Numbered from the stretch's first letter, positions 20,009 to 40,400 are shown. The stretch: 64,000 nucleotides of DNA from Bacteriovoracia bacterium (GCA_050251055.1 JBFWNL010000004.1:256001-320000), one strand, 5' to 3'. A program made the numbers and translations. The notes: generated by a model from the letters alone, not told the origin.

Positions 20009-20019
20009 GCTTGCGTTCC

Positions 20020-20469
20020 TTACTTGTTCCCGCGCTGTTCCATCAAAAACTCCTTATCGTAGACCACGCGCGATTGGGTCTGCGACATTTCGTAAATATT
20101 GCTGAGCTTGATGGCGTCCTTCGGGCAGGCTTCCTCGCACATGCCGCAGAAGCAGCAGCGCAGGACGTCGATCTCGAATTTCACCGGGTACTTCTCCTTG
20201 TCGGAACGCTCGCCCGCCTCGATGTGAATGCATTCCGCCGGACAAACGGTCGGGCAAAGCATGCAGGCCGTGCAGTTTTCCACGCCGTTGACGGCCTTGA
20301 TGTAATGCTGGCCGCGGAACCGGTCGGAGTAGTTGCGACGCTCCTCGGGATACTGGATCGTGACTTTCTTTTCGAAGAGCATGTTCCGCATCGTGATGAG
20401 CAATCCCTTCACGATATCCGGGAAGAATATATGGTGGAGGACCCCTAGTTTTTTCTTCTGTTCAAGCAT
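20020..20469 (-). CDS. nuoI: NADH-quinone oxidoreductase subunit I (canonical copy)
   Basis: TIQYPEE, CTACMLCPTVCP, CCFCGMCEEACP. Confidence 0.96.
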   Translation of the reverse strand: MLEQKKKLGVLHHIFFPDIVKGLLITMRNMLFEKKVTIQYPEERRNYSDRFRGQHYIKAVNGVENCTACMLCPTVCPAECIHIEAGERSDKEKYPVKFEIDVLRCCFCGMCEEACPKDAIKLSNIYEMSQTQSRVVYDKEFLMEQRGNK

Positions 20470-20478
20470 CAATCCTCC

Positions 20479-24235: not shown

Positions 24236-24248
24236 GACTGATCTCCGC

Positions 24249-24740
24249 TCACTTCCCGCTCATCCGATCTAGGATCTGGTCCATCTTTTTTACGTCGAGG
24301 TTTTCGTGATAACCCTCGCCGGTCATCATCGCCGGGGCGGTTCCGCAGGCCCCCAGGCATTCTTCCTCGTTCAAGGTGAACTTCATGTCCGGCGTGGTCT
24401 CGCCGCAGCGGATCCCCAGGCGCTTCTCGCAATGTTCGACGAGCTTTTCCGCCCCGCGCAGGGCACAGGCGACGTTCGTGCAGATGCGCAGGTGATTTTT
24501 CCCCACCGGCTTGAGGTTGTACATGGTGTAAAAGCTCGCCACCTCGCGGACCTGGGCCGGGTGGATACCGATGTACTGGGCAATCTCGTCCATCACTTCG
24601 CCGGGGAGCCAGCCATATTCGTCTTGGGCGGCATGCAAAGCCGGCAAGAGGAGCGCCACCTTGGTCGGGTAGCGCGGCTCTAATTTTTTCATTTCGCCGT
24701 AGAATTTTTCGGACAGATTTTTCATATTTCCCTGGGCCAT
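24249..24740 (-). CDS. nuoE: NADH-quinone oxidoreductase subunit E
   Basis: VASFYTMY, CTNVAC, CLGACG. Confidence 0.96.
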   Translation of the reverse strand: MAQGNMKNLSEKFYGEMKKLEPRYPTKVALLLPALHAAQDEYGWLPGEVMDEIAQYIGIHPAQVREVASFYTMYNLKPVGKNHLRICTNVACALRGAEKLVEHCEKRLGIRCGETTPDMKFTLNEEECLGACGTAPAMMTGEGYHENLDVKKMDQILDRMSGK

Positions 24741-24753
24741 ACTTGCCGCCTTA

Positions 24754-26037
24754 TTACCGATCCAACTCGCCCGCGATGATGTTGATACTTCCCAAAGACG
24801 CCACCAAATCCCCGATGAATTCGCCTTCGCACATGGGATCCAGTCCCTGGAAATGCCAGAACGATGGGCTACGGATGCGCATGCGGTGCGCGCGCGGGGC
24901 GTTTTTGCTGACGATATAAAAACCCAGCTCGCCGTTGGCAGCCTCGAACGGCGTGTAAGCCTCGCCGTCCGGGACGTCGAAACCCGTCATGAAGAACTTG
25001 AAGTGGTGGATGAGGCCTTCCATGGTGTTGAAGACCACTTCCTTATCCGGAATGCGCACACGCTTGTCTTCCGACCAAATCGGGCCCGGCTTAATTTTGT
25101 CCGCGCACTGGATGATGATGTTGAGCGACTGCTGGATTTCTCGCAGGCGCACCAAGAAGCGGTCGTACACGTCGGCGTTCTGGAAAACCGGGACGTCGAA
25201 ATCGACGTCTTTATAGAACATCGGCGAATAGTCGCGACGGATGTCTTGATCGATGCCCGCCGCGCGCGCGATGGGGCCCGTCCAGCTGTACTGCAGGCAC
25301 TGCTCCTTGGTGAACGTGCCCACGCCCACCGTGCGCATCAGCCAAATCTTGTTGGTATTAAGCAGGCGATCCATCTCCGCGATCACCTCGCGGGTGCGCA
25401 TCGCCCATTGCTTCGCGTCCTTCTCCCAGCCTTCCGGCGCGTCGGCCATGAGGCCGCCGATCCGCGTGTAGGACGTGGTGAGGCGCGCGCCGCAGAGCTT
25501 TTCAATGAGCGTGTACCCTTCCTCGCGTTGGTGGAAGCCATAAAGAAAGTAGGAAAACGCGCCCATGTCGACGGCGCCGATACCAATGCAGACCAGGTGG
25601 TCGATGATGCGGGCAATCTCGCTCGCCATCATCCGGATCCAAACCGCGCGCGGCGGGACCTCGACGCCCATGAGCTTCTCGACGGCCATCGAGTAAGTCA
25701 CGTTGTTAATGAGCGCCGAGCAATAGTTCAGGCGGTCGGTGTACACAACGAACTGGTGATAGGTGCGGTTCTCGCCGAGCTTTTCCTTCGCGCGGTGGGT
25801 GTAGCCGAACTCGCAGTAGGATTTCTCGATGATCTCGCCATTCACCTTCGCCATCATCCGGAGCGCGCCGTGCATCGCCGGGTGCGTCGGGCCGATGTTG
25901 ACGAGCATCCGCGATTCGTCCCAGAGGTCGTCCGGGTCGTGCTTAGCCGACTGGGTGATGTCGACGCTCATGTTTCGAGGCATCCCGAAACGTTGGATAT
26001 CTTTGGGGAGCTTCTTATTCGTGGATTCTTCGCGCAT
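24754..26037 (-). CDS. nuoD: NADH-quinone oxidoreductase subunit D (canonical copy)
   Basis: GPTHPAMHG, YTDRLNY, AVDMGA, IAGELDR. Confidence 0.97.
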   Translation of the reverse strand: MREESTNKKLPKDIQRFGMPRNMSVDITQSAKHDPDDLWDESRMLVNIGPTHPAMHGALRMMAKVNGEIIEKSYCEFGYTHRAKEKLGENRTYHQFVVYTDRLNYCSALINNVTYSMAVEKLMGVEVPPRAVWIRMMASEIARIIDHLVCIGIGAVDMGAFSYFLYGFHQREEGYTLIEKLCGARLTTSYTRIGGLMADAPEGWEKDAKQWAMRTREVIAEMDRLLNTNKIWLMRTVGVGTFTKEQCLQYSWTGPIARAAGIDQDIRRDYSPMFYKDVDFDVPVFQNADVYDRFLVRLREIQQSLNIIIQCADKIKPGPIWSEDKRVRIPDKEVVFNTMEGLIHHFKFFMTGFDVPDGEAYTPFEAANGELGFYIVSKNAPRAHRMRIRSPSFWHFQGLDPMCEGEFIGDLVASLGSINIIAGELDR

Positions 26038-26049
26038 CGCTTTATCCGC

Positions 26050-26619
26050 CTATTTCAACAGTTCTGGATCCAGAGGTTCCGCGGTCGGGAAGATCTGGTA
26101 GCCACGCAGCGGGTAATCCTTCCGCAACGGGTGGCCTTCCCAGCGCATGTCCATCAGGATTCGCCGCAGATCTGGGTGGCCCGCGAACTTGATCCCGAAC
26201 ATGTCCCACACTTCGCGCTCGGCCCAGTTCGCGCCTTGCCAAAGTGAAATCAGGGTCGGCACGGTATCGTTCTCGGCCACGGGGGCCTTCACCCGGAGGC
26301 GCCAAAATTTTCCGGGCGCCGCGAGGTTATACACGACGTCGAATCGCGGTTCGCGTGGGGACTCATCGGTCGCCGTCAAATCGGCAAGGAAGCCGTACTC
26401 GAAGCCCGGCTCGTTCTTCAAAAAGGTCATGATCTCGACGATCGACTGCTTGTCGACGGTGATAATCGGCACGTCCGTGCGGCTTTCCCCCGGCATCTGG
26501 ACGCCGAGGATTTTCGCGCCGAATTTGGCCTTTAGCTGCGTGACTTGCGTCTTCCACGTTTCGCCAAAGCGCGTGGGCCAGTCGCCGTAAATCGTGGGAA
26601 CGGGGGTCCGGACGTCCAT
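26050..26619 (-). CDS. nuoC: NADH-quinone oxidoreductase subunit C (canonical copy)
   Basis: ANWAEREVWDMFGIKFAGHPDLRRIL, GHPLRKDYPL. Confidence 0.97.
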   Translation of the reverse strand: MDVRTPVPTIYGDWPTRFGETWKTQVTQLKAKFGAKILGVQMPGESRTDVPIITVDKQSIVEIMTFLKNEPGFEYGFLADLTATDESPREPRFDVVYNLAAPGKFWRLRVKAPVAENDTVPTLISLWQGANWAEREVWDMFGIKFAGHPDLRRILMDMRWEGHPLRKDYPLRGYQIFPTAEPLDPELLK

Positions 26620-26626
26620 GTCGGTT

Positions 26627-27133
26627 TTACTCCTTCACCGTCTTGAAAATTCCGTGCTCTTTGCGCTGCGCCTGGGTCGCGCCCTTCGCGATGAGGTCCT
26701 GCAGCCGCATCAGCCCGTGCAATACGCCTTCCGGCGCGGGCGGGCAGCCCGGTACGTAGACGTCCACCGGAATGATGGTGTCGATCCCTTGGGTGACGCT
26801 GTACACGTTGAAGATCCCGCCCGAGGAAGCGCACGCGCCGAAGGACATGACCCACTTCGGGTCGGACATCTGGTCGTAAACATTGCGCAACACGGGCGCC
26901 ATCTTGGCGTTGATGATCCCGGCCACGATCATCAGGTCGCTCTGGCGGGGCGAAAAGCGAATCACTTCCGCGCCGAAGCGGGCCATGTCGTAGTCCGCGC
27001 TCAGCGTGGCCATCATTTCGATCCCGCAACAGCTGGTGCCGAAGGGCAGGGGCCAGAGCGAGTTCTTGCGCGCCCAATTGATGACGACGTCGAGTCGCGT
27101 AGTGAGATACTCTGAAGAACCGTCTTTACTCAT
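26627..27133 (-). CDS. nuoB: NADH-quinone oxidoreductase subunit B (canonical copy)
   Basis: [26 protein letters not shown]. Confidence 0.97.
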
Positions 27134-27154
27134 GGCTGACTCCTGGCTTTCCCA

Positions 27155-27514
27155 TCAATCCCATTCCAGCGCACCCTTGCGCAGGATGTAGACGTAACCC
27201 ACGAGCAGAATCACCGCGAAGGTGCCCATCTCGAGGAGAATGAACGAGTTAATTTCGAGAAACTTTTTGTAAACGATCGCCCACGGAAAAAAGAAGACCG
27301 CTTCCACGTCGAACAGCAGGAAGAGGATGGCGACCAGATAGAACCGAACCGACACGCGTTGCTGGGCGTTACCATGCGCTGGCACGCCGCACTCAAATGG
27401 GGATTCTTTCTGTGGATTCTTGGATTTAGGACCGAAGAGTTGCGACAGAATAAGCGCGCCGCCGCCAATGACTGCACCAGCCCCCATCATGATCAAAATC
27501 GGAATGTAATCCAT
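27155..27514 (-). CDS. nuoA: NADH-quinone oxidoreductase subunit A (canonical copy)
   Basis: PFECG, FYLVAILFLLFDVEAVF, KGALEW. Confidence 0.96.
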   Translation of the reverse strand: MDYIPILIMMGAGAVIGGGALILSQLFGPKSKNPQKESPFECGVPAHGNAQQRVSVRFYLVAILFLLFDVEAVFFFPWAIVYKKFLEINSFILLEMGTFAVILLVGYVYILRKGALEWD

Positions 27515-27546
27515 CACCTATTTATAAACGTCTAAATGGGTGAGGG

Positions 27547-29028
27547 CTACCCTAAAATCAGCTCGAGAGAGCGGCCCGTCCAATACAAAATCGGTTCGGC
27601 GAAGATGCTGAGCAAGCCGACGGGTACAAGCAAAAGAATCAAGAACGCGCGCTGTCGCGGAACAAATGCGAGGGGTGGGTTCGTATTTCCCACGTACTCC
27701 CGATACTGTCCCATGAGCTGGAAACAGAGCCGGCCGAAGACCGCGACCGACACCAAACTCGAACCCACCGCGAGCGCCGCGAGACCAAACCACTCCCGTT
27801 CGACGATGGCGTCGACGAGCGCGAAGCGACCGATGAATCCCGGCAATGGCGGGAAACCCACAAAGCTCGCCAGAAAGAACACTAAACACAAGCATTCTGG
27901 TAAGGATTTGGCGAGCATTCCTCGAAAATCAGAAAGTCGATCAGATCCTAACCGATCGAAAAAGAAGGAAAATACCCCAAAAATTCCAGCCAGAGAAAAA
28001 AGATCAACCAAAAGACAGTAGAGCAGTGCGGCAACTCCACTGTGATTCAATACTAAGAGGCCCATCATTAAGAAACCCATGTGCGCCACGAGCAGGGCAC
28101 TCACCAGGCGCTTCGCGCCTTGTTGCCGAAGCGCCAGTAACGACCCAACCACCATCGTCGTCCCCGACACGAGCGCCACGATCTGCGGCCACTCCGTCAA
28201 AAGCTGACCGCCGGATGCCGCCACATCGGCGGCGCCCGGCCCGCCGAACACGACGAGAAAGAAACGAATCGCAACGGCGATCCCCACGGTCGGAATTCCC
28301 AAACCCAGATAAATCCCCGAAGGCGTGGGCGCGCCTTCAATCACGTCCGGTACCCAGAGGTACATCGGAAAAACCCCGGCGAAGAAACTCAGCGCGAGAA
28401 AAATCAGCACGAAGACCAGCAAGCCCGTCTCGCGCGGGATAGGATTCGCGGCCAGTGCGGCGTGAATCTCGTAAATATTTAACGTATGCGTGAGCGTAAA
28501 GAGGATGGCGATGCCGAACAGGAAGAAAACCGAAGCCACGGCGCCGAAGACCAGGAACTTAATGGCCGCCTCCGTCGAGCGCACCTCCTCCTTCGCGTAC
28601 CCGGCGGCGAAATAGCCGATCACGCACATGAGCTGGCACCCCAGGAAAATCAGGAGCAGATCGACCGAACAAACGACCAGGCACATCGCGAGCGCGGCCG
28701 CGACGAGGAACACGAAGTACTCCGTGCGCCGGCTTTGCCGGATTTCGGCGGAAAAATAAACCGTAATGGCCGCGAGCACCGCCAGCACGAGCAAGAAGAG
28801 CTTGAAGAAGATGGAAATACCGTCGATGACGATCGAACCGCCGAAAAGTTTCGTCCCCAAGCTTTTATAAGTAAAGAGCACCTGGATAAAAGCGGTACCG
28901 AGCCCCAGCAAGGTGGTGCCCACCACGACCCGGGTGCGTTCGCCCCGATAAGCGATTTCGGCGAAGACTAGCCCCGCCAAGGTCAGCAGCAGGTAGGCCT
29001 CGGGCATGAAAAGCAGAAATTCCTGCAA
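27547..29028 (-). CDS. nuoN: NuoN-like subunit of the divergent 11-subunit complex I paralog
   Basis: EAAIKFLVFG, WVPDVIEGAPTP, KRLV..AHMG, GFPPLPGFIG; full length, conserved Glu/Lys replaced. Confidence 0.88.
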   Translation of the reverse strand: MQEFLLFMPEAYLLLTLAGLVFAEIAYRGERTRVVVGTTLLGLGTAFIQVLFTYKSLGTKLFGGSIVIDGISIFFKLFLLVLAVLAAITVYFSAEIRQSRRTEYFVFLVAAALAMCLVVCSVDLLLIFLGCQLMCVIGYFAAGYAKEEVRSTEAAIKFLVFGAVASVFFLFGIAILFTLTHTLNIYEIHAALAANPIPRETGLLVFVLIFLALSFFAGVFPMYLWVPDVIEGAPTPSGIYLGLGIPTVGIAVAIRFFLVVFGGPGAADVAASGGQLLTEWPQIVALVSGTTMVVGSLLALRQQGAKRLVSALLVAHMGFLMMGLLVLNHSGVAALLYCLLVDLFSLAGIFGVFSFFFDRLGSDRLSDFRGMLAKSLPECLCLVFFLASFVGFPPLPGFIGRFALVDAIVEREWFGLAALAVGSSLVSVAVFGRLCFQLMGQYREYVGNTNPPLAFVPRQRAFLILLLVPVGLLSIFAEPILYWTGRSLELILG

Positions 29029-29057
29029 GAAACTCCCCTTCTATTTACTTCCGGCCC

Positions 29058-30581
29058 TTAGGCCGACAACGCCGCCAAAAGCTGGGCGACCGACGGGCGA
29101 ATCACGTCCAACAACGGTTTGGGATAGACCCCGAATACGATCAACAATCCTACGATCGGCGTGAAGCAAAGTTTTTCCCGCCAGGTCAGGTCAAAGACCC
29201 GTTTGGATTCACCCCGCTCGTGCCCCAGGAATATCTTCATGAACACCTGGAACAAGCCGTACACGAGCACCACGAAAGATGCTCCAATCACCAAGACGGA
29301 AAACACCGAAACTCCGAAACCGCCGATCAAGATCAGCGACTGTCCGACGAAACCGCCCAGCCCCGGCACGCACAGCAAAGCGCCCAGAATTAAGCTCACG
29401 GTTAAGGTGAGCACGGGTGAGTGGCGAACGACGCCCCCGAAATGCGGTTGGCCATCGTCGCCCAGGAAGCTCGTCTTCTCCGTGCGTTCGCGCAGCAAAC
29501 CAAAGAAAAGACCGAAGCCCGAAAGCGCGAGGCCAAACGCGAACTCGTGGTAGAGCGATCCCACGACGCCGGCGGAGCCGCCCGAAGCGATGCCCACCAG
29601 GGAAAGACCGATCTGGTTCATACAAAGATACGCGAAGACCATGCGCAGCTCGCGCTGGGCCACGCATAGGATGGCCGAAAAAATAAATCCCACTTCGCCA
29701 ATGGCCAAAATCCAAGGCTGGAAATGCGACATTTCCATCGGAAAAATGAGGTATCCCAGCTTTGTAAAAAGATAGAGCGCCACGGGGACGAACACGCCGC
29801 CGAATGCGATCGCCACCGAGGCCGGCGCCTGCGTCATCGCGTAGGTGAACCATCCGTGGATCGGCCAGATCGGAATGCGCAGCATGAACGAAAGCGCGAA
29901 AAGCAGAAAGGCCAGACGCGAGACCGGCATATCCAGGCCGAGCATCGACACCTCGCCCTTCCAGAACTTGCCCCCGAAAAGCTCCTTGATCGAAAAACTA
30001 TTGGGATCCACCGAGTAATAGATCAGGATCAGGACCACAAAAAACAGCGCGCTGCCCGCCGAGGCGGTGACGAAAAACCGGAAGCCGGCTTTTTCCCGGG
30101 CTTCATCGCCCCAGATGATGAATAGGAAGTAAAACGGCAAGGCGCTGAGCAGCCAGAAGAAGCAAACCAGGAATAGATTTTGGGCGGTCACCACCCCGAT
30201 CAGCGTCGCTTGCAGCAATAGAAAAAGGGCCTGCATGCCCATGCGCCCGCTCGGCTGCTTCCACTCCGCGCCGATCAGGATCGGGAAGATCACGGCGATC
30301 AGAAGCACGAGCGGGGCGTTCAACCCGTCCAGGCCGACCGCGTAAGCAATGGAATACGAGTCCACCCAGGAAAGCGATTCCAACCCCTGAAACAGCGTCG
30401 CGCCCTTATTAAACTGGGCCAACAGCGCGAAGGCGCACAGACTGGACAGGATGCTCGACACGAGCCCGATCCACTTGATCCACGGCACGGATTTGGAGTT
30501 GGAAAAGAGCGGCGAAAGCCCCAGCCCGAGCACGCCCAACAACGGAAACAAGATAGTGAGACTGCAAAGGTAGTTCAACAA
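29058..30581 (-). CDS. nuoM: NuoM-like subunit of the divergent paralog
   Basis: GLDGL, IPIWPIHGW, QAP, PGLGGFVG, DLTWRE, GVYP. Confidence 0.88.
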   Translation of the reverse strand: MLNYLCSLTILFPLLGVLGLGLSPLFSNSKSVPWIKWIGLVSSILSSLCAFALLAQFNKGATLFQGLESLSWVDSYSIAYAVGLDGLNAPLVLLIAVIFPILIGAEWKQPSGRMGMQALFLLLQATLIGVVTAQNLFLVCFFWLLSALPFYFLFIIWGDEAREKAGFRFFVTASAGSALFFVVLILIYYSVDPNSFSIKELFGGKFWKGEVSMLGLDMPVSRLAFLLFALSFMLRIPIWPIHGWFTYAMTQAPASVAIAFGGVFVPVALYLFTKLGYLIFPMEMSHFQPWILAIGEVGFIFSAILCVAQRELRMVFAYLCMNQIGLSLVGIASGGSAGVVGSLYHEFAFGLALSGFGLFFGLLRERTEKTSFLGDDGQPHFGGVVRHSPVLTLTVSLILGALLCVPGLGGFVGQSLILIGGFGVSVFSVLVIGASFVVLVYGLFQVFMKIFLGHERGESKRVFDLTWREKLCFTPIVGLLIVFGVYPKPLLDVIRPSVAQLLAALSA

Positions 30582-30584
30582 AGC

Positions 30585-32519
30585 TTATGTCCCCAAATAG
30601 AAGTGCCCGAGCAAAGCGACGACAAAAAACAAGACCAGCAACAAATACCATTGCAGATCACCGTTTTGTACCACCTGCACGACTTTGGCTGGCACTATCA
30701 TACTCTGCTTGAGTACCCAATCAATCGATTTTGCCGAGACCCGGTCTATTTTCGCGAATCCGCGCGCGGTATGCTCCAGGCTTTTCCCGGCGAAATCCGC
30801 CATTTTTTTCTGCCACAATCGCCGGGCAAACACGGCATCGAGCGCGATCGAAGCGCGCGCGATCGAGTTCCACGCTTTCCCCACCCCTTCATCGACGAAG
30901 AAGCCTTGCGCCACAAAGCGATAAAAGGGGGGACGCTTCTTCTCCCACTTAGCGAAGACGTTACGCATCCAGTAAGCGATCAACAGGCCCGCGAGAACCG
31001 CGGCGAGCTGCGTGGGAACGATGCGCTGGACCGAATCCAACGTCAGGTGCCGGGCATCGATCAGCTCCTTCGGATACTCCAGCAAGCTAAACTGAAAGAG
31101 ACGGTCACTCCCGTCGCGAAGCAGATCGCCCGTCAGGGTGCCCGACCAAGTCAAAGTCAGCACCGAAACCAACGCCAGCCAAACGAAAACATTCAGACTC
31201 CAATGCATCAGCGGCGTCGAGAGTCGACGCCACGACGCCAGGAGGATGCGAAAGAACGAAAAGCCCAAGGCAAGGTAGAGAATCACGGCCGTCGCGAGCG
31301 CGGGCGGATTCTCCCAAAGCGCGCCCAACAACGGCACGGCGCCCAGGGTACCGACCCAGCCCGGCAGGCCCAAAGCGGCCCCCACGGCAAAAACGGCGGC
31401 GACCTTGTTCATCACCGAACCCGATGCCGCTTTCGTTTCCTTCGGCTTGCCGCGCTCGTCACCAAAAAGCAGGGCAAACAGCACGAGAGCGCCCAATGTC
31501 GCGGAAACGAAAACCATGAAGCCGGCGCCGGCGCCCACGAATGCGAGCGCCGTGAGCGAGCCGCACTGAGCGGCGTTTAACCAGCAAGCCAGGCCACGCT
31601 TGGCGTTCTCTTGAAACCCCGCCACCAAAGCGGAAATCATTCCCGACGCCGCCCCGACGTAACCCAGCACGGGAAGGATACCCACTTCCCGCAGATGCGG
31701 CTCGAGTCGATAAAGCAGGCAAAATGCAGACGAAGCCAAGAACACCTGGCAAACCAGCGTTCGCGGCAGCACCAACGCTTCCGGGGTGGCGGCGATCCAG
31801 TTCAACCAGGGGAAGCCGCGCAACAAAAGATAAGCCCCTAGTACGAGCAGGGTCGCACCGAACTCCACAGAACCCAGCTGCGGCCAAGCCCCGTATACGT
31901 CGTACCGCAAGGAAGCGCCGGCATGCACCAAAACGCCCGCCCCCACCGCTACCACGAAAATACCGAGCACCGGCTCGGAGAGCTGTCGCACGGGGAAGGT
32001 TTCGGACTCTTCGCTGGCGGTGGCCACCAGCGCCAGCCCGGCGGCCAACACGCAGCCCGCGACGCCAATCAAGGTCATCCAAGGAGTAGAGGACTGCCAG
32101 GCGATGCCACTGCCGATCGCGCCGCACAGCAAAGCCGTCGCAAGTTTACGGGTCGGCTTGGCGGACTCGCCGGAAATAACGAACGTCAACACCGTGAGCA
32201 AAATTCCGAGCAGGATCCAGCTTTGCCCCACGACATCGTAGGCGAACCCGACCTGAATACCGACGGGGGAGGACGTAGGGTCGATCCATCCACGCATCCA
32301 ACTTAACGAGCCGCCTTCCCTTAAATTTTCCCAAAGGAGCAAAAAGGCACGGACGTTCAAACCAAAAGTCAACGCCGCGACGATTCCAAAGCCCCATCGG
32401 ACAAATGCCAGACGCCCTCCCGGGGTGAGGCGCCCGGCGAAATAAAATGCCCAAGCCACTGCAACCAAGGAGAGGGTGGGCAAAACGGCGGTGACGAGCG
32501 AGGTGCTTTCGAATCTCAT
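30585..32519 (-). CDS. nuoL: NuoL-like subunit of the divergent paralog (highly diverged)
   Basis: Lies between the K-like and M-like genes; multi-TM; GLPGWVG, FFVDE lateral helix, C-terminal VQNGDLQWY matches VQTGSLQVY of the canonical NuoL. Confidence 0.8.
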   Translation of the reverse strand: MRFESTSLVTAVLPTLSLVAVAWAFYFAGRLTPGGRLAFVRWGFGIVAALTFGLNVRAFLLLWENLREGGSLSWMRGWIDPTSSPVGIQVGFAYDVVGQSWILLGILLTVLTFVISGESAKPTRKLATALLCGAIGSGIAWQSSTPWMTLIGVAGCVLAAGLALVATASEESETFPVRQLSEPVLGIFVVAVGAGVLVHAGASLRYDVYGAWPQLGSVEFGATLLVLGAYLLLRGFPWLNWIAATPEALVLPRTLVCQVFLASSAFCLLYRLEPHLREVGILPVLGYVGAASGMISALVAGFQENAKRGLACWLNAAQCGSLTALAFVGAGAGFMVFVSATLGALVLFALLFGDERGKPKETKAASGSVMNKVAAVFAVGAALGLPGWVGTLGAVPLLGALWENPPALATAVILYLALGFSFFRILLASWRRLSTPLMHWSLNVFVWLALVSVLTLTWSGTLTGDLLRDGSDRLFQFSLLEYPKELIDARHLTLDSVQRIVPTQLAAVLAGLLIAYWMRNVFAKWEKKRPPFYRFVAQGFFVDEGVGKAWNSIARASIALDAVFARRLWQKKMADFAGKSLEHTARGFAKIDRVSAKSIDWVLKQSMIVPAKVVQVVQNGDLQWYLLLVLFFVVALLGHFYLGT

Positions 32520-32523
32520 GGGT

Positions 32524-32811
32524 TCAGTGCCGCAGCTTTCTGAACGTTTCAATATTCACGTTCTTCTTTAGATAAAAAAGCCGGGTCGCGAGCGAAAACA
32601 CCACGAGTAGCTGCCCGCAGCCCGCGACGATCACGAAAAACCCGTACACGTGTCCCTGCGACTGCAGGCCCGCCAACACCCCGCCGACCGAAAAACAAGC
32701 CGCCGCCGCGTAAAATAACAAGACGATCCCAATGGCCATCCCAATCAGGTTACGCTTCAAAAGGAGGCAAAAAAATCCAATGGCCGCCAGCGCGACGGGA
32801 ATGGCGATCAT
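32524..32811 (-). CDS. nuoK: NuoK-like subunit of the divergent paralog
   Basis: IGFFCLLLKRNLI, three TMs, GHVYGFFVI, C-terminal NIETFRKLR. Confidence 0.85.
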   Translation of the reverse strand: MIAIPVALAAIGFFCLLLKRNLIGMAIGIVLLFYAAAACFSVGGVLAGLQSQGHVYGFFVIVAGCGQLLVVFSLATRLFYLKKNVNIETFRKLRH

Positions 32812-33281
32812 TCCGACTTTCCCTCCGATCGCGAAACCACGCCCACCCCCAGCATCACCAGGAACAGCGTGAGCGCGAGTATCTCCAGCGGAAGCAGCTG
32901 GGAGCCGAACAACGTCGCGCCGAACTGAACCACCTCATTCGGAGGAAACGCGACTTCGCCGCCCTCAGGCAGGTAACGTACCGCGAGACCCGTCACCGTC
33001 GCCAGGCAGGCGGCGGCCAGGAGGGCCGTCGCGCGATAAAAGAAATTCGCCGGGCGTTCCCGCGACCCGAAAAGCACCACGTAGAACAAGAACACCACGG
33101 CGCAAACCGACGTAATCACCCACTGCGAGACCGCCAGGAATTCCGATCCTGTCGCGAGGAAGCTCGCGCCCAAGGCCATGCCGCAAACCCAAAGGGAAAA
33201 CAGCGCGAGCCGATAGTTCGCCGCCATCGCCGCCACCAGCGCCGCCGCGACCGCCAAAATCCCAAAGCTCCAAAAGACCAT
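32808..33281 (-). CDS. nuoJ: NuoJ-like subunit of the divergent paralog
   Basis: SEFLAVSQW, FGATLF..LLPLEILALTL; TGATG-coupled to the nuoI-like gene. Confidence 0.82.
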   Translation of the reverse strand: MVFWSFGILAVAAALVAAMAANYRLALFSLWVCGMALGASFLATGSEFLAVSQWVITSVCAVVFLFYVVLFGSRERPANFFYRATALLAAACLATVTGLAVRYLPEGGEVAFPPNEVVQFGATLFGSQLLPLEILALTLFLVMLGVGVVSRSEGKSE

Positions 33282-33817
33282 CAATCCTCCATGTTTTCGC
33301 GTTGGCGCGCCTGGATCCACTTTTCCCTCTGCTCGGGCGAAATTCGCCCCCGGCCGAAGGTGGTCACCAGATTCGATACATCATAGACCGCGCCCTCGAA
33401 TTGCTTGGTGTGCACCAGGGAACCCGGGTGGCAAGCCTCCACGCAAAGGCCGCAAAAAATGCATTGCCCGAAGTCGATGTCGTAGACCGAAACCCACTTT
33501 TTCGACGGATCCGGGCCATGCTCGGTCTCCACGGTAATGCACTTCACCGGGCAGATCCGCTCGCATTCCTGGCAACCCGTGCAGCGGTCGATGTCGTTGA
33601 ACAACAATCCGCGCGTGCGGGGCGGCAGATCGTCCTCGGTGCGCGAAGACACCGGATCGGGGTACTGCTCGGTGATCTCCTTACGAAGCTCGCCCGTGTT
33701 AAAAAGATAGTGAAAACCGCTAACGGCGGAAACGAGCACCGACCGCACGCCGGCGCCCACCTGGACTGCGTAAGACATCAGCGTGGAAATCAATGTGTCT
33801 TTCATAGGTATCGACAT
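33281..33817 (-). CDS. nuoI: NuoI-like 2x[4Fe-4S] subunit of the divergent paralog
   Basis: TEQYPD, RTRG, CTGCQECERICP, CIFCGLCVEACHP. Confidence 0.92.
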   Translation of the reverse strand: MSIPMKDTLISTLMSYAVQVGAGVRSVLVSAVSGFHYLFNTGELRKEITEQYPDPVSSRTEDDLPPRTRGLLFNDIDRCTGCQECERICPVKCITVETEHGPDPSKKWVSVYDIDFGQCIFCGLCVEACHPGSLVHTKQFEGAVYDVSNLVTTFGRGRISPEQREKWIQARQRENMED

Positions 33818-33827
33818 CCGCTCGTGC

Positions 33828-34892
33828 TCAAAACAAACTCCGTCCTCCGAGCCAGAGGCACTCGATCAGTAGCGCTCCCAACGCGCAGGGTCCCAGGATC
33901 CGCCAGCAAAACTCCGTCGTTTGGTCCGAGCGCGGCTTCGGCAAGGACCCCACCACCCAATGCGTCGCAAACATCAACAAAAAGACCTTCATCACAAGAT
34001 TCACGAGCTGCACGACCTGCAGAAGCAAACCCTCTCCCGTCAGGCTCACCGCCCAGCCCGGCAGCTTCCAACCCCCAAGAAAGGTGACCGTGGTGGCAAG
34101 CGCCCAAAAAAAACCGCCGTAGAACCGCAGCAAGCGCGTGATGGAAAGACTGGGCCCGGCCACTCCCTGAAAAAAACCGCCTTGGAGATCCGCCCGGGAA
34201 AATCCCGCGTCGAAAGGCGAAACCGAAAACACAACCAGGCCGCCCAGGTAATACGCCAGGAAAACGATGGTAAAGAGAGGCCACGGCTGTTGAAAAACCA
34301 GCCACGAGCCTGGCCAGAAACCCTGATGTTCGAGGATGGCCTGCCACCGGTAACCGCCCACGGCCAGTCCCACACAGAGGATGGAAACCATCACCACGAA
34401 TCCCCCCGATAGGGCCTGGGCGGTGTTGCGGATCATTCCGACCCAGCCTTGGGCGTCGCGCCGGTAAAACCCGTAGAACAAAAAGAAAAAGCTCAAAATA
34501 ATCCCGAAGATCAGCGGCACGAACGCGCTCATATCGGTGTCGAATAGATTAAAGCGTGAGGAGAGCGGGATCGTGAGCACGGACGCGAGCGCCACGCACA
34601 GCAAGGTTCCCAGCCAGAAAAGCTCAGCACGGCGAGGCTTGTGAGCGGGTGACTTCTGGATCAGCTTGAAAAAATCCGCGAGTGGCTGGAAATAGCCGCG
34701 CGGCCCGGCCTCCGCAGGGCCCACGCGAGCTTGCAGGTCCGCGAAGAATTTCCGACGGACGTAAACATCCAAATAAGCCATGGGAACGAGCAGAAGCGCA
34801 ACCACGGCGAGGAAAAAACAAAACAGGAAAAGAATATCCGGCAAGCCGGCGAACATTCCCAAGGTTTGGCGAAGCTCCGGGAGTGCGTTCAT
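33828..34892 (-). CDS. nuoH: NuoH-like subunit of the divergent paralog
   Basis: QARVGPAEAGPRG..QPLADFFKLIQK, SPFD, FLGGW, LPKPRSDQ. Confidence 0.9.
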   Translation of the reverse strand: MNALPELRQTLGMFAGLPDILFLFCFFLAVVALLLVPMAYLDVYVRRKFFADLQARVGPAEAGPRGYFQPLADFFKLIQKSPAHKPRRAELFWLGTLLCVALASVLTIPLSSRFNLFDTDMSAFVPLIFGIILSFFFLFYGFYRRDAQGWVGMIRNTAQALSGGFVVMVSILCVGLAVGGYRWQAILEHQGFWPGSWLVFQQPWPLFTIVFLAYYLGGLVVFSVSPFDAGFSRADLQGGFFQGVAGPSLSITRLLRFYGGFFWALATTVTFLGGWKLPGWAVSLTGEGLLLQVVQLVNLVMKVFLLMFATHWVVGSLPKPRSDQTTEFCWRILGPCALGALLIECLWLGGRSLF

Positions 34893-36034
34893 CGATCGGC
34901 TTCTCCCACCGAGATATCCAGACTAGCAAGGATCAAAGGGAAATCGCCCACCCACTGTCCGACCAGGATCTCGGGCACCGCCTGTAAGAGCGCCTTGCTC
35001 CCTCCCCGGACCTGCAAGCGATAAGGGGTATTTCCGCCGTCGGAGACCGCATGGACGGCCAGGACTCCGCGTGCCCCTTCGACGCGCGAATACGCCTCGC
35101 CCTCGGGCACCTTGAAATCGAAAAGCTCCTTCACGGCGCGGTATTCGCCCACCGGAATATTCTCGATCGCCTGGCGGATTATGTCGACGCTCTGGACGAT
35201 CTCACGCAGCCGCACGACCACGCGGTCGTGCACGCCGCCCAGCCGATCGCCCTCTCCTGATCCCACCGGCACCTGAAACTCGAACTCTTCGTATCCACTG
35301 TAGGGCGCGGACTTTCGCATGTCCGACACGACCCCGGACGCACGCGCGTCCGGGCCCGTGATGCCGTACCGGCGCACGACCTCCGGGTGCAGGAGCCCCA
35401 CGCCGGCGGACCGGCGCTGAAAAATATGATTCGACGTGAAAAGGTCCTGATACTCGCGTACCCGCGTGCGAATCAGGTCGCACACTTCCGAGACCCGCTC
35501 GATAAATCCGTCGGTGATATCGGTGGCCACCCCGCCGAAGCGGAAATAATTCAGGTTAAAGCGCGAACCGCTGATCAGCTCGAAAAGATCCAGGATTTTT
35601 TCGCGGTCGCGCAGGACGTAATGCATCACCGTCTCGAGCTCCACGGTCTTCGCGATCCGTAGTAGCGCGCCCAAATGGGCGCTGATTCGGTTCAGCTCGC
35701 AGAGCGTGACGCGGATCCGGTTGGCGCGAGGGGAGACCTGCAGGCCGGCGATTTCCTCCACCGCCAGGCACACCGCCAATTCGGTAAATAGCGCGGTCTC
35801 CGAATCGATCCGGTCGGCGTAGGGCATCACGCTGTACCACTGCTGAAGCTCGATGGCCTTTTCCACGCCCCGATGAAAAAAACCTGATTCGCAGTGCACG
35901 CCGGTGATCATCTCGCCGTCGAGCTGCAGCTTCAGCGCCATTGGCCCCGGCAGTCCCGGATGGAATGGCCCCAGCTCCCACGCCGTCTGCACGGTGCTAA
36001 ACAGGTCGGGGCGGTCGTTCTCCATTTCCACCAT
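34889..36034 (-). CDS. nuoD: NuoD-like subunit of the divergent paralog
   Basis: LGPFHPG, GFFHRGVEK, ELNRISAH, GITGPDARASG, VEGARG, DISVGEADR; no NiFe CxxC motifs; ATG at 36034 follows the nuoC-like stop. Confidence 0.92.
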   Translation of the reverse strand: MVEMENDRPDLFSTVQTAWELGPFHPGLPGPMALKLQLDGEMITGVHCESGFFHRGVEKAIELQQWYSVMPYADRIDSETALFTELAVCLAVEEIAGLQVSPRANRIRVTLCELNRISAHLGALLRIAKTVELETVMHYVLRDREKILDLFELISGSRFNLNYFRFGGVATDITDGFIERVSEVCDLIRTRVREYQDLFTSNHIFQRRSAGVGLLHPEVVRRYGITGPDARASGVVSDMRKSAPYSGYEEFEFQVPVGSGEGDRLGGVHDRVVVRLREIVQSVDIIRQAIENIPVGEYRAVKELFDFKVPEGEAYSRVEGARGVLAVHAVSDGGNTPYRLQVRGGSKALLQAVPEILVGQWVGDFPLILASLDISVGEADR

Positions 36035-36036
36035 GG

Positions 36037-36534
36037 CTAGATTTCCTCGCTTCGCCGCGGACGCGGAATTTCCGGCAGACGGAACTCGCGCCGGAGGGGG
36101 TAGCCCGTGATCTGCTCCGGCACCGGCCGGAAGGAGACGTTTTTTTCCGTGGGATGCGTGAAATCGATCCCTAGGAGCGCCTGCAGTTCCGACTCGAACT
36201 GCCACGCGGACGGGAAGATCGGCTGAATCGAAGGGATCGCGTAAAGTCCGCCGGAATCGGCTTCCAAGCGCGTCCGGAAGATCACCCGCTGCTGGGTACG
36301 CTGGGACACCAGGAAGTATGTCAGCACCATCTTCGACTTCTCTTCGTAGCCGGAGATGCACTCAAGGAAATCCGCCTCGGTTTCGGCGTCCTCACGGCAA
36401 GCCCGCACCGCGACTTCCACCGCGTCCGGGCGCAAAGTGAAAAACGGCACCTGGGCCGCCCCGAAGGTCCCCACCGAGACCACGCCTCCCGAACGGCGAT
36501 CGTTAATAGACGTCTTTAAATTTTTTAGATCCAA
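36037..36534 (-). CDS. nuoC: NuoC-like subunit of the divergent paralog
   Basis: IPSIQPIFPSAWQFESE...GIDFTHP, GYPLRREF. Confidence 0.88.
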   Translation of the reverse strand: MDLKNLKTSINDRRSGGVVSVGTFGAAQVPFFTLRPDAVEVAVRACREDAETEADFLECISGYEEKSKMVLTYFLVSQRTQQRVIFRTRLEADSGGLYAIPSIQPIFPSAWQFESELQALLGIDFTHPTEKNVSFRPVPEQITGYPLRREFRLPEIPRPRRSEEI

Positions 36535-36973
36535 TGATCTTCTCCTGGAGGGTCAAAAGCCCGTTCATCACCGCTTCGGGTCGCGGTGGACAGCCGGAAA
36601 CGAAAACATCGACCGGAATCAGTTTCTCCACGCCGGGCACGACGGAATAACTGATGCCCGGGGAAAACGCGCCGCCGGTGCACGCGCATCCACCAACGGC
36701 CAAGACGTACTTGGGCGAAGGCATCCGATCGTAAAGTTCCTTCAAAACCGGCGCCAGTCGGTAAGTGATCGCGCCGCTCACGATCAGGAGGTCCGCCTGC
36801 AGCGGATCGACCTGCGGCAGGCTGCCGAAACGTTCGAGGTCGTAGCGGCAACCGAAGGCGTTCGTCACCTCATCCGAGCAGCAGCCGGTGCCGACGGAAA
36901 AATACCAAAGCGATTTCGCGCGAGACCACTTCAGCAACGAATCCACGGACGTGACCTTGAAGAATGCGCTCAC
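36503..36973 (-). CDS. nuoB: NuoB-like [4Fe-4S] N2 subunit of the divergent paralog
   Basis: GCCSDE, YDLERFG, QADLLIVSG, GGCACTGG, SGCPPRPE; GTG at 36973 overlaps the nuoA-like TGA. Confidence 0.93.
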   Translation of the reverse strand: MSAFFKVTSVDSLLKWSRAKSLWYFSVGTGCCSDEVTNAFGCRYDLERFGSLPQVDPLQADLLIVSGAITYRLAPVLKELYDRMPSPKYVLAVGGCACTGGAFSPGISYSVVPGVEKLIPVDVFVSGCPPRPEAVMNGLLTLQEKIIGSKKFKDVY

Positions 36974-37362
36974 GCCTCGTCTTCCTTTCGGAAGGACTTC
37001 AGCCATTCGAGATCGCCCTTGCGGATCGCGTAGAAGAGCCCCAGGCCCAGAAAAGCTCCGATAGAAACGATCGCGGCCAATCCCCGCAATCCGGTTTCGG
37101 CGGAGGAGGAATTCAACGATTCGCGGAACGCCGCCACGCAGGGAGCGAGCACCAATACCAAGAGCACGAGCAATGTCGCGATGTTACCGAATAAAGAGAT
37201 ACGGGGGTTCAGCTTCGCATCCCAAACGATCGGCTTTAGCGGCGTCGCAGTTCCACCGAGCGGCCCGCCATCCCGACGAAAGAATCGCCCCATCAGCAGC
37301 ACGAGGATCGGCACACAGATGCTAAATAGAGCGCATATAATGATAACTACATACGAGCCCAA
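36970..37362 (-). CDS. nuoA: NuoA-like subunit of the divergent paralog
   Basis: Three TMs, C-terminal YAIRKGDLEW; probable TTG start at 37362 after a GGGGA RBS. Confidence 0.8.
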   Translation of the reverse strand: MGSYVVIIICALFSICVPILVLLMGRFFRRDGGPLGGTATPLKPIVWDAKLNPRISLFGNIATLLVLLVLVLAPCVAAFRESLNSSSAETGLRGLAAIVSIGAFLGLGLFYAIRKGDLEWLKSFRKEDEA

Positions 37363-37411
37363 GCCGTCCCCCGCGAAAGTTACCCCAAAAGTCGAACAAA
37401 ATTCGAACTTT

Positions 37412-37440
37412 AGGCTACTGAAGTTGAAAACCAGTGTCAA
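37412..37440 (-). promoter_or_regulatory. Sigma70-type promoter for the tandem nuo clusters
   Basis: Minus strand TTGACA (37440-37435) - 17 nt - TAGCCT (37417-37412). Confidence 0.7.
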
Positions 37441-37460
37441 GGTTGGGTAAGGTCGATTGA

Positions 37461-40400
37461 ATGAATTCGGGTGAACTGCCCCTCATCTTGAAACAGATGG
37501 GTACCCTACCGGTTTTCCGGCTGGGCGGCGCATTACCTTCGGCCCAAGCCTACCTTTGCCGCCAACTTCCGCATTCGCTTTCCATCGTCGTCTGCCAGGA
37601 CGAGGACGCCGCGACGGTCTTCGCGCAGAACTTACAAGCCCTGAGTTTGGAAGATTCGGACGCCCCGCTTGTTTTGTCACTACCCAGCTGGGAGCAATCC
37701 CCTTACAGCGCGATCTCGCCGTCAATCCAGGTGCGTCAATCCCGCGCCCGCGCGCTCGCGCACGTCCTCGAAAATCAAGACGGCGGAAGCGGGCGTGGCC
37801 TGCTTGACCCGACATCGCGTGGCCTCATCGTCGTCACGACCCTGGTCGCCCTGAGCCAACGTACCTGTCCGCCTTCGCTCTTTCGGGAAGCTCGCATCGT
37901 TTTGGAAAAAAACGGGGTGGTTGGTCAACGCGAGCAGCTCACCTCCCGGCTGCGAGACGCGGGCTACCTGCAGGTGGATCCGGTGGAAGATCCGGGCACG
38001 TTCGCGGTAAGGGGCGACATCGTCGACGTGTACCCTCCCCAAGCCGAGGCGCCTCTCAGAATTGAGCTCTTCGACGACCAGGTGGAACGCATCCGGGAAT
38101 TCGATCCCGCCACCCAACGCACAAGGACCGGTGTCGAACACGCGCGCTTCGTGATTTATCCCGCCCGCGAAGTCCTGATCCACCCCTCCAACCGCGAGGC
38201 CTTCCGTCAGCGCCTCAAACAGCGCGCCGATGACTTGGGCATCCCTCGCCAAACCCGCGATCCCGTCCTGGAAACCCTCGCTAACGGATTCTATCCCGAG
38301 GGCGCGGACTACTGGTCCGCACTGGCGTATGAAGGAAAACACGTTTTTCGTGATTTCCTCGGGAAAAATGCGACTTTTTTCTTCTCCGACGAGTTAGGCT
38401 GCCGGCAAGCGTTTGAGGCTTTCCAAGTCCGCCAGCGTGAACTGTCCGAGGAGGCAAAGGGCTCCGGTCGGGTGGTTCTGGATTTTCCGGACATATTTTC
38501 GAAGGTCGATGCGGAAGCCGCAGCGTTCGATAGTTACCGGCGGGTTTACTTCGATGCCTTGGAGCTCGCCGACCGCGCGCTCGACGTGCGCGTGGAAACT
38601 TCGCCGATCGTGGCGAACTCCCCCGACACCGCCCGTGGCGCCGAACGAATGGCTCAGTTCGCGGCCCGGATTAAATCCCTGGGCGCATCGCCCACGCTGC
38701 TGGGTTTCGCATCCACCCAAAGCCAGATCGATCGCATGCAGTACCTTTTCCAAGAGAACGGGTTGCCTCCGGCGCGTTGGCGGATCGGAGCGTGGGGCGA
38801 GGGCTTCGCCTGGCCAGCGCAAAACCTCGCGGTATTCTCTCAGGCCGATGTCTTGGGCGAGACCAAGAAACCTTCGACGACTGCACCCAAGCAATGGTCG
38901 GGGCTGCAGAACCTCTCGGACCTGAACGTGGACGACACGATCGTTCACGTCGAACACGGGATTGGCGTTTACCGCGGGATATCGCGGCTCCAGATCATGG
39001 GGGGCGCTTCCGACTTCCTGCTGATCGAATACGACGAACAAGCGAAGCTTTACTTGCCCGTCTATCGCATCAATCTCATCCAGAAGTACGTGGGTGGCCG
39101 CGAGGGAATGAAACTCGCCAAGCTCGGCGCCGGCGCATTCGAAAAGACGAAGGCGAAGGTGCGGGATTCGGTGAAGAAACTCGCCATCAACCTTCTCGAG
39201 GTCTATGCGCAGCGAAAAATCCAAAAAGGCCTGCGTTTCCCGGCCCGGGACGCGATTTTTCAAGAATTCGAGGACCGCTTCCCTTTCCAGGAAACCCCGG
39301 ATCAGACGCAGGCGATCGAGGATTCGTTCCGGGACCTCGAATCGGGACGCATCATGGACCGCTTGATCTGCGGTGACGTAGGGTTCGGCAAGACGGAGGT
39401 CGCGATCCGCGCGGCTTTCCAAGCCGTGATCAGCGGCAAACAGGTGGCCGTGCTCGTGCCGACCACCATCCTCTGCATCCAGCACGAACAGACGTTCAAG
39501 AACCGCATCCAAAAGTTCCCGATTCGCGTGGAGTCTATCTCGCGCTTCAAAACCCGTCCCGAGCAGCAGAAATTACTGCAGGAGCTCGCGGAGGGAAAAA
39601 TCGACGTTCTCATCGGAACGCACCGCCTATTATCAAAGGACGTGAACTTCAAAAAGCTCGGGCTCATCATCGTCGACGAAGAGCACCGCTTTGGTGTCGA
39701 GCACAAAGAGAAGCTGCGCGCCATGAAGGCCAACACCCACGTAATGACGTTGACGGCGACCCCCATCCCGCGAACCTTACATATGGCGCTCGCAGGGATC
39801 CGCGACATCAGCCTCATGACCACGCCGCCCGTGCATCGGTTGCCGATCAAGACTTTCGTCGCGAAGTACGACGAAACCCTCATCAAGCAGGCGATCGAAA
39901 CCGAGCTGGCGCGCGACGGCCAGGTCTTTTTCCTCCATAACCGGGTGCAGACCATCTTCCGCCAGGCCGAAAAGATCCAAGCTTTGGTGCCCGCGGCGAA
40001 GGTGCGGGTCGGCCACGCCCAGATGACGGAAAAAGAACTCGAAGACACAATGCTGGCGTTCTATCGCAAGGAATTCAACGTTTTGGTCTGCACGACCATC
40101 ATCGAATCGGGGTTGGATATCCCGTCCGCGAACACGATCCTCATCAATCACGCCGATCGCTTCGGGCTCGCCCAGCTCTACCAACTGCGCGGGCGCGTCG
40201 GCCGCAGCAACCAACGCGGGTACGCTTACCTACTGCTGTCGAATGACCTCGCCCTTACCGAGGATGCCAAACGAAGGCTGGAGGTCATCCAGCGTTTCGT
40301 GGAACTCGGCAGCGGCTTCCAAATCGCCTCGCATGATCTCGAAATCCGTGGTGGAGGGAACGTGCTAGGCCCCGAGCAGTCGGGCAACATCGCCTCCGTG

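Follow-up and report, generated by a model that had tools for sequence, protein, structure and literature searches.

The 11-subunit form of complex I that lacks an NADH module (N-module), designated NUO11 in the portions of Degli Esposti (2015; PMC4758237) that deal with it, is encoded by operons of the order nuoABCDHIJKLMN without nuoEFG, and operons of this type are found in Bacteroidota, Calditrichota, Planctomycetota, and Chlorobi. The same gene content and order was found in a 64,000-nucleotide (nt) stretch of DNA from a Bacteriovoracia bacterium (GCA_050251055.1; JBFWNL010000004.1:256001-320000), which is referred to here as the window and from whose first letter all positions are counted. 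This operon, named nuo2 (nuoA2B2C2D2H2I2J2K2L2M2N2; 27547-37440, minus strand), is tightly packed, with neighboring genes overlapping or at most 29 nt apart, and encodes together homologues of the complete complex I core set A, B, C, D, H, I, J, K, L, M, and N. Pfam matches were obtained for ten of the 11 products, that of NuoA2 only below the cut-off. Sequence comparisons revealed that nuo2 keeps the cysteine ligands of its iron-sulfur (Fe-S) clusters, whereas its quinone ligands and the charged residues of the proton path are replaced.

The nearest relatives of NuoD2 and NuoI2 outside the nuo2 clade are of the NUO11 type (40-42% identity), and the NuoD tree joins both groups. The pump columns conserved in NUO11 are, however, lost in nuo2, which on present sequence comparisons is an 11-subunit-type complex I by descent that fails three of the defining functional features of this family. 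With respect to canonical complex I (Nqo1-14 of Thermus thermophilus, NuoA-N of Escherichia coli), the core subunits are homologous, the ligand sets of clusters N2, N6a, and N6b are identical, and NuoD2 is predicted to share the NuoD fold (TM-score about 0.9), whereas nuo2 has no NuoEFG of its own and its quinone ligands, E-channel, and antiporter Lys/Glu residues are replaced.

Two other members of the complex I superfamily are of interest for comparison. MBS/Mbx of Pyrococcus furiosus, which is held to conserve energy, is a complex-I-like assembly with non-quinone, non-H2 chemistry beside its proximal cluster. Its subunit MbsL (6u8y) matched NuoD2 over the full length (E 5.4e-56), but this match is weaker than that to NuoD, the membrane subunits of MBS are of the Mrp type, and no sulfur-related genes were found near nuo2. 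In its way of working, nuo2 is least like complex I and most like the hydrogenase-related complexes (Ehr). According to PMC4758237 and PMC6349859, these likewise belong to the complex I family and have a large subunit in which both the NiFe cysteines and a normal quinone site are missing; PMC6349859 further relates them to group 4 hydrogenases, with ion transport assumed to proceed via Mrp-like subunits. Judged by PDB ranking, subunit set, and these descriptions, nuo2 is nevertheless not an Ehr member, because NuoD2 is far closer to NuoD chains (Nqo4, E 1e-74; NdhH, 2e-73) than to MbhL (2e-40) or HycE (2e-33), because the full complex I subunit set and order is present, with the antiporter residues gone, and because Ehr is assumed to be ion-translocating.

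No description of the nuo2 operon was found in a full-text literature search, supplements being outside its scope. In the parts of the papers that bear on the point, the survey of Spero et al. scored 14-subunit sets only (PMC4453560), and a Peredibacter paper reports split nuoAHJKLMN and full nuo clusters, not nuo2 (PMC13147790). Public records name the nuo2 products "NADH-quinone oxidoreductase subunit," a name that the present analysis suggests is wrong as a functional statement.

Iron-sulfur ligands and quinone-site positions

Relatives were collected by a scan with one genome per species, in which 47 of the 80 loci listed (L001-L044, L046, L047, and L071) carry the nuo2 gene set, while the other loci, from Calditrichota, Planctomycetota, and Bacteroidota, have 11-gene operons of the order nuoABCDHIJKLMN. 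The nuo2 loci represent about 47 species within a single order of Bdellovibrionota; two of the records, Bdellovibrionota bacterium FG-1 and FG-2 (L021 and L004), do not carry the label of a metagenome-assembled genome and may derive from cultures. Each nuo2 subunit (37 to 47 sequences) was aligned with the canonical protein of the window, with the canonical A to D proteins of the same loci, and with an 11-subunit outgroup (22 to 31 sequences); open reading frames (ORFs) that did not reach 75-80% of the reference length were left out, and columns at least 93% conserved outside nuo2 were scored.

The span 33281-36973 (minus strand) comprises nuoI2, nuoH2, nuoD2, nuoC2, and most of nuoB2, and a previous sequence-only reading had described it as a peripheral arm with its Fe-S ligands kept and its quinone site erased. 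The ligands could be read directly. NuoB2 (36503-37006, minus strand; Pfam Oxidored_q6, E 2.7e-26) carries all four ligands of cluster N2 in the motifs GCC (GTGCCSDE), GGC (VGGCACTGG), and GCPP, and all 45 of the 45 aligned sequences retain the cysteines concerned (C42, C43, C107, and C139). NuoI2 (33281-33817, minus strand; Pfam Fer4_7 and Fer4) contains both CxxCxxCxxxC motifs (CTGCQECERIC and CIFCGLCVEAC), whose eight cysteines are kept in 47 of 47 aligned sequences; by motif search, 46 of 46 sequences carry the two motifs. When orthologues across the clade were checked for loss of the Fe-S cysteines, these were found to be kept, also in the divergent loci L089 and L090, and in L088 seven of the eight NuoI2 cysteines were seen. 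In the latter locus (4544-5527), the nuoI2 frame ends after the third cysteine of the second 4Fe-4S motif, the only exception seen, which may be due to a frameshift or sequencing error or be a real truncation. The residues beside the CC motif of NuoB2 have changed: two positions after it, Ile is replaced by Asp (D45) in 43 of 45 sequences, and a conserved Arg is replaced by Gln (Q65) in 39 of 45.

In Nqo4 of T. thermophilus, the quinone head group is liganded by H38, Y87, and D139. NuoD2 (34889-36034, minus strand; 381 amino acids; Pfam Complex1_49kDa, E 3e-75) shares 30% identity with NuoD1, the window's canonical NuoD, and a high-confidence structure prediction gives it the NuoD fold (AlphaFold2 mean predicted local distance difference test 87.6; Foldseek TM-score 0.88-0.91 to 49-kDa/NuoD chains). 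The phmmer alignment with Nqo4 (2fug_4, E 1.1e-74) placed Pro, Ser, and Thr, respectively, at the three ligand positions, and the motifs HPAMHG, DRLNY, and AVDMG of NuoD1, in which H38, Y87, and D139 are present, read HPGLPG, DRIDS, and AKTVE in NuoD2, exactly as previously noted. Across the nuo2 clade (46 sequences), H38 is replaced by Pro in 44 and by Ser in two, Y87 by Pro in 43, and D139 by Ala (29), Ser (8), or Thr (5). The position of F146 is also changed in the window's clade, and a new near-invariant His (H138; 45 of 46 sequences) occupies the position after it. Sixty-nine columns were at least 93% conserved in 54 canonical and 11-subunit-type NuoD sequences; since the nuo2 clade keeps 43 of these and loses seven, among them all three quinone ligands, the loss is not a matter of chance. 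The 11-subunit outgroup, in contrast, keeps H34, H38, Y87, and D401 in 31 of 31 sequences and D139 in 30 of 31.

NuoD2 has four cysteines and no CxxC pair, which bears out the earlier remark that NiFe CxxC pairs are lacking. A new metal site composed of C89, C327, and H138 was considered and is not supported, because Val takes the place of C327 in the window and a CxxC is lacking.

A profile search over 1.84 billion proteins showed that, among the best 150 representatives, at least one quinone position differs in 76, the triad is complete in 61, and gaps occur in 13, with ranks 1-26 all changed or gapped at the triad. Losing the triad is not in itself peculiar to nuo2, because some NuoD-like groups further down the ranking also lack it. 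The NuoD-like proteins P0214, P0216, P0223, P0238, P0259, P0263, P0269, and others lack the triad and show patterns such as HKGEMD, HNHSYN, and HNMFQN, and some of these representatives are fused to NuoC (530-580 amino acids).

These substitutions bear on the explanation that nuo2 is an uncoupled quinone reductase, which would still reduce menaquinone or ubiquinone, at a site that is displaced or shallow, but would not pump, providing a non-electrogenic ferredoxin:quinone or NADH:quinone bypass. The residues kept at the front of the NuoH2 cavity and D401 of NuoD2 would suit such an enzyme, as would the early-branching members (L088 and L090) that keep Y87 without H38 and D139, a pattern described, in the relevant part of PMC4758237, for the methanophenazine-reducing Fpo (F420H2:methanophenazine oxidoreductase). 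In the window's clade, however, Y87 has gone as well, H38, D139, and the residue at F146 are likewise changed, replacements extend to the NuoB positions next to the CC motif and to the NuoH loop between transmembrane helices (TM) 5 and 6, and quinone-type outgroups retain the triad. We consider an uncoupled quinone reductase improbable. Fpo itself also differs from nuo2 in that it pumps, and neither FpoF nor FpoO was seen with nuo2.

Proton-path residues of the membrane arm

The view that the quinone site is erased stood for the ligands throughout the clade but fell short of the extent of the loss, since the E-channel and antiporter Lys/Glu residues of NuoH, A, J, K, L, M, and N are also replaced. 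NuoH2 (33828-34892, minus strand; Pfam NADHdh, E 2.4e-43) has lost 37 of 88 conserved columns, including E166, E227, R230, E237, E239, E249, and E262 of the canonical NuoH1, the last being replaced by Arg in 44 of 47 sequences. We take the spacing of the lost loop glutamates to correspond to the E213/E223/E225/E235/E248 series of T. thermophilus Nqo8, and an independent phmmer alignment of NuoH2 to NdhA showed the same loop without acids. In NuoA2 (36970-37440, minus strand), the canonical E72 and E96 (A1 numbering) are replaced by Leu and Ala, and in NuoJ2 (32808-33320, minus strand; Pfam Oxidored_q3, E 4.6e-9) Ser, Ala, or Thr stands in place of the canonical Tyr (J1 Y62). NuoK2 (32524-32811, minus strand; Pfam Oxidored_q2, E 2.6e-7), which keeps three of 22 conserved columns, has lost both membrane glutamates, with Gln in place of K1 E38 in 40 of 45 sequences (Val in the window) and of E74 in 39 of 45.

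The antiporter-like subunits were affected to different degrees. NuoL2 (30585-32552, minus strand; 655 amino acids) had no Pfam match and was assigned as a NuoL/NdhF derivative by a profile of 30 orthologues, which matched cyanobacterial NdhF (6hum_F, E 3.6e-16) including the C-terminal motif LQxIQxGDxQWY after the lateral helix; it keeps six of 146 conserved columns, and E153, D187, K243, H268, K356, and K412 are all replaced. The alignments of NuoL2, NuoK2, and NuoA2 to the canonical subunits stand at 20-35% identity. NuoM2 (29058-30581, minus strand; Pfam Proton_antipo_M, E 3.3e-33) keeps 49 of 152 conserved columns and loses 60, with M1 E147 replaced by Gly, Ala, or Ser, K236 by Arg (37 of 37), K267 by Pro (34 of 37), and E409 by His, Asn, or Gln. 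NuoN2 (27547-29028, minus strand; Pfam Proton_antipo_M, E 1e-41) keeps 23 of 70 and loses 19, with N1 E145 replaced by Gln or Leu, K230 by Gln (Phe in the window), and K260 by Arg or Pro. If these residues correspond to those of E. coli NuoL, NuoM, and NuoN, as we presume from the agreement of their spacings, the TM5 Glu, TM7 Lys, TM8 Lys/His, and TM12 Lys/Glu are all replaced in NuoL2 and NuoM2, and NuoN2 keeps only the TM12 Lys.

Conserved charges in a hydrophobic context, a count that rests on hydropathy and is less dependent on cross-family alignment, numbered 2 in NuoL2 vs. 9 in its canonical counterpart, 0 vs. 3 in NuoA2, 2 vs. 4 in NuoK2, and 11 vs. 9 in NuoN2, which is on this ground the least degraded membrane subunit. 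The replacements were often of Glu by Gln, of Lys by Arg or Gln, and of polar residues by Trp, by which packing is kept and proton transfer is not.

We give very little credence to the explanation that nuo2 is still an ion pump or antiporter working with other residues, for example in NuoN2 and NuoM2. The buried charges of NuoN2, the retention of D85, D135, R235, R274, and R313 in NuoM2, and the strong constraint on both subunits would fit such a pump. Against it, none of the three antiporter-like subunits retains the TM5 Glu or the TM7 Lys, the acidic residues of NuoK, NuoA, and NuoH through which the antiporters are linked to the redox site have disappeared, the conserved buried charges of NuoL2 are few, and NuoL, NuoM, and NuoN are cut down in miniaturised relatives described below. 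Nor can nuo2 be taken for a pump that uses another acceptor, because the E-channel and antiporter residues are replaced along with the quinone ligands. We infer that nuo2 would neither reduce quinone at the canonical site nor carry out redox-driven pumping, and that its membrane arm would serve as an anchor held by the NuoL2 lateral helix, the latter being in keeping with the Glu-to-Gln and Lys-to-Arg changes, which preserve structure, with the Trp gains, and with the conservation of the C-terminal strap of NuoL2.

Selective constraint and the possible role of nuo2

The ratio of nonsynonymous to synonymous substitution rates (dN/dS) was relied on for the closest pair of loci only (L008/L014; dS 0.34-0.52), farther pairs being saturated (dS > 1 or undefined). 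All 11 nuo2 genes are under purifying selection in this pair, with dN/dS values from 0.014 to 0.17 (A2 0.16, B2 0.05, C2 0.17, D2 0.04, H2 0.04, I2 0.015, J2 0.13, K2 0.014, L2 0.105, M2 0.019, and N2 0.049), compared to 0.046-0.099 for the canonical A1 to D1; the value for I2 is the lowest among the peripheral subunits. The proportion of columns at least 90% conserved within nuo2 was highest in NuoB2 (37%), NuoD2 (29%), and NuoI2 (28%), and lowest in NuoC2 (9%; 36037-36534, minus strand; Pfam Complex1_30kDa, E 1.5e-15) and NuoL2 (3%). Several of the replaced positions are now themselves conserved, namely P29, P31, P78, E79, E85, and H138 of NuoD2, D45 of NuoB2, and many Trp residues of NuoL2, NuoH2, and NuoJ2. 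The new conserved residue set, together with the selection acting on it, therefore indicates a working gene set with a changed job. That nuo2 is a decaying duplicate, with pseudogenes in the making, is hardly credible: it does evolve faster than the canonical set (45-57% identity to the window protein for NuoD2 vs. 65-79% for NuoD1) and has lost catalytic residues, but the 11 ORFs are intact in dozens of species, the low dN/dS and the new residue set speak for constraint, and the family spans dozens of clusters at 50% identity.

The operon is accompanied by a complete complex I. A canonical 14-gene nuoA-N operon (14079-27517, minus strand), identified by its ORFs and Pfam matches and including NuoE, NuoF, and NuoG, follows nuoN2 after a spacer of 29 nt (27518-27546, minus strand). 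The assembly (3.77 Mb, 93.5% complete) contains just two NuoD homologues and a single NuoF, the latter in the canonical operon. The earlier statement that no NADH module is present was thus correct for the 11 nuo2 genes, none of which encodes NuoE, NuoF, or NuoG, but the single nuoEFG of the genome lies in the operon immediately downstream. Of 36 loci that reach nuoN2, 34 run on into canonical nuoA, B, C, and D with a median gap of 34 nt, and no promoter-like or terminator-like site was seen in the nuoN2-nuoA gap; nuo2 and the canonical nuo genes are probably co-transcribed, and it is possible, as far as gene order can tell, that nuo2 shares the single NuoEFG of the same probable transcript.

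The reading that we favor, at somewhat better than even confidence, is that nuo2 is a retired complex I, derived from the N-module-less 11-subunit type and kept for a membrane-anchored Fe-S module of NuoB2, NuoI2, and NuoD2 that would serve uncoupled electron transfer or redox sensing, while the downstream canonical operon presumably does the NADH:quinone work. Selection would act on this module, which most likely still passes electrons or reports a redox state. A soluble carrier of low potential may act as the donor, with ferredoxin and flavodoxin, which have been proposed for complexes without an N-module, as candidates, or else the co-expressed NuoEFG may take this part. The electrons would then move from N6a via N6b to N2 and into a remodelled, more polar pocket lined by P29, P78, E79, E85, and H138 of NuoD2 and D45 and Q65 of NuoB2, and the path would end at a non-quinone acceptor or in a report of redox state, without energy conservation.

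Two alternatives deserve attention at this point. The first is a pure scaffold or regulator, in which the clusters would be structural only and the L-shaped complex would act as partner, assembly platform, NuoEFG dock, or membrane organiser for canonical complex I. We regard this as possible but rather unlikely. The conserved tandem and probably co-transcribed layout in 34 loci, the single NuoF of the genome, the structure-preserving nature of the substitutions, the conserved strap motif of NuoL2, and the low dN/dS of the membrane subunits H2, K2, and M2 (0.014-0.04) are all in its favor. It does not, however, account for the cofactor-bearing subunits and NuoD2 being the most conserved and the membrane arm the least, nor for the residues around N2, which have switched to a new conserved set with no drift, and in miniaturised relatives the membrane subunits shrink and NuoC2 is lost while NuoB2, NuoD2, and NuoI2 persist. 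Relay to a non-quinone acceptor, sensor, and structural role, the three options of the sequence-only reading, are not separable by sequence, but the conservation ranking and the miniaturised relatives favor a working Fe-S module over a scaffold. The second alternative, equally tentative, is a "pseudo-complex I" whose L-shaped body and live three-cluster wire might work with the canonical complex I of the same transcript, borrowing NuoEFG or docking beside it, and might in this way brake in response to redox state, buffer electrons, or offer the respiratory chain a non-quinone outlet; if true, the complex I scaffold would thereby gain a new functional class.

Several observations weigh against the favored reading, that is, an Fe-S module kept in a complex that has lost quinone reduction and pumping. 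The cysteines of the Fe-S clusters might have been retained simply because the folding of NuoB and NuoI requires these clusters. D401 is kept in NuoD2 and could support limited activity, the N-terminal cavity-front residues of NuoH2 (R36, K37, R45, D62, K65, and K69 in H1 numbering) are retained, and a claim reviewed in the part of PMC4758237 on this subject holds that short-chain quinones still react after mutation of Y87. In the membrane arm, the TM12 Lys of NuoN2 (K412) is kept in 32 of 37 sequences (Arg in the window), the conserved buried charges of NuoN2 are not reduced, and NuoL2, NuoK2, and NuoA2 were compared at low identity. In addition, a search upstream of nuo2 and within the operon gave no linked donor or acceptor gene, and a search of sequencing runs gave three DNA runs of one study and no RNA run with the nuo2 locus.

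Complex I is usually read as an indivisible energy converter, and nuo2 shows its parts separated by evolution. The classic Glu-to-Gln and Lys-to-Arg knock-outs occur here naturally along the whole proton path, and sister families show a stepwise erasure of quinone site, E-channel, and antiporter residues, while the wire and the architecture are kept under strong selection in tens of species. The operon is thus a natural map that tells residues for assembly from residues for coupling, its graded series, from partly active-looking through dead to miniaturised, lends itself to testing coupling models, and it is a candidate for a new role of the complex I scaffold outside bioenergetics.

Relatives of nuo2 and flanking genes

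A search of 5.8 billion proteins revealed at least 120 proteins that are 49-57% identical to NuoD2, those with a name deriving from metagenome-assembled genomes of Bdellovibrionota/Oligoflexia. Among 401 genomes of the phylum, a NuoD2 match of at least 45% identity was found in 52 besides the window's own, and all 52 are among the 91 genomes classed as "same order." Other classes of Bdellovibrionota have only split nuoBCDI clusters with H34, H38, Y87, and D139 intact; an equation of nuo2 with these clusters was rejected, since their NuoD keep all four residues.

The graded series is formed by related families. In families f7 and f8 of the order (L088 and L090), an 11-gene nuo2 is present in which H38 and D139 are lost and Y87 is kept; NuoM keeps K267, H324, H350, and E409, the TM5 Glu persists in NuoN, and the key residues of NuoK and NuoL have already gone. 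In family f4, all three genomes examined hold a miniaturised nuo2 of 6.6-7 kb between mfd and nuoA (L093, 5960-12509; L094; L095; corresponding to G117, G049, and G033), without NuoC2 and with NuoL, NuoM, and NuoN products of 280-480 amino acids. Its NuoD2 is 26-27% identical to that of the window, the CCxxE motif of NuoB2 and both CxxCxxCxxxC motifs of NuoI2 are kept in the three operons, and NuoD2 of L093 and L094, the two genomes in which it was observed, has a GPxHxWLPGP motif. The idea that nuo2 is absent from f4 was accordingly rejected, the miniaturised version having been missed by a search with the window NuoD2 at E 1e-30. No C gene lies between nuoB2 and nuoD2 in L089, L066, and L093-L095. 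Of these, L066 is from a metagenome-assembled genome labelled Pseudomonadota and encodes (9435-12626) nuo2-type B, D (with Pro, Pro, and Gln at the quinone positions and H138), H, and I proteins, which may reflect mis-binning or transfer out of Bdellovibrionota.

In the NuoD tree, which is unrooted and has long branches, all 21 nuo2 rows fall on one side of the starred branch (99) and join a short-branched cluster of the 11-subunit type, while the NuoD of 14-gene operons form a separate clade on a long stem. Because of this lack of a root and these long branches, the tree does not discriminate between descent of nuo2 from the phylum's own split complex I and transfer. The window lineage is an outlier within nuo2, with a terminal branch of 0.97 vs. 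0.2-0.5 for most others, and has Ser instead of Pro at Y87, Val instead of Cys at position 327 of NuoD2, and Val instead of Gln at the first NuoK Glu. In an unclassified bacterium (L073), an intact 11-gene nuo operon of the quinone type, with H38, Y87, and D139 kept, lies directly before canonical nuoABCD, and this tandem is possibly a picture of the ancestral state.

Upstream of nuo2, the gene order is syntenic, with a divergent mfd (39 loci) followed by two peptidyl-prolyl isomerases, pdxA, phosphoglucomutase, and uvrA. The nuoA2 product has 156 amino acids as the longest ORF, whose true start may be further in, and a weak Pfam match (Oxidored_q4, E 0.005, below the cut-off); its orthologous position was seen in 37 loci. 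This longest ORF begins 20 nt from the divergent mfd start (37440-37461), so that either nuoA2 starts further in or the nuoA2 and mfd promoters both lie inside coding sequence. Likewise, an ORF of 490 amino acids at 34889-36361 represents an over-extension of nuoD2 across nuoC2. In the canonical operon, NuoG (21564-22964, minus strand) has just 466 amino acids with the domains Fer2_4, NADH-G_4Fe-4S_3, Fer4_Nqo3, and Molybdop_Fe4S4, its molybdopterin domain being a remnant of 50 residues, and the NuoG orthologues of L088-L090 have 462-467 amino acids. Directly downstream of canonical nuoN lies a gene for a tetratricopeptide-repeat protein of 1035 amino acids (10969-14076, minus strand), followed by that for seryl-tRNA synthetase.

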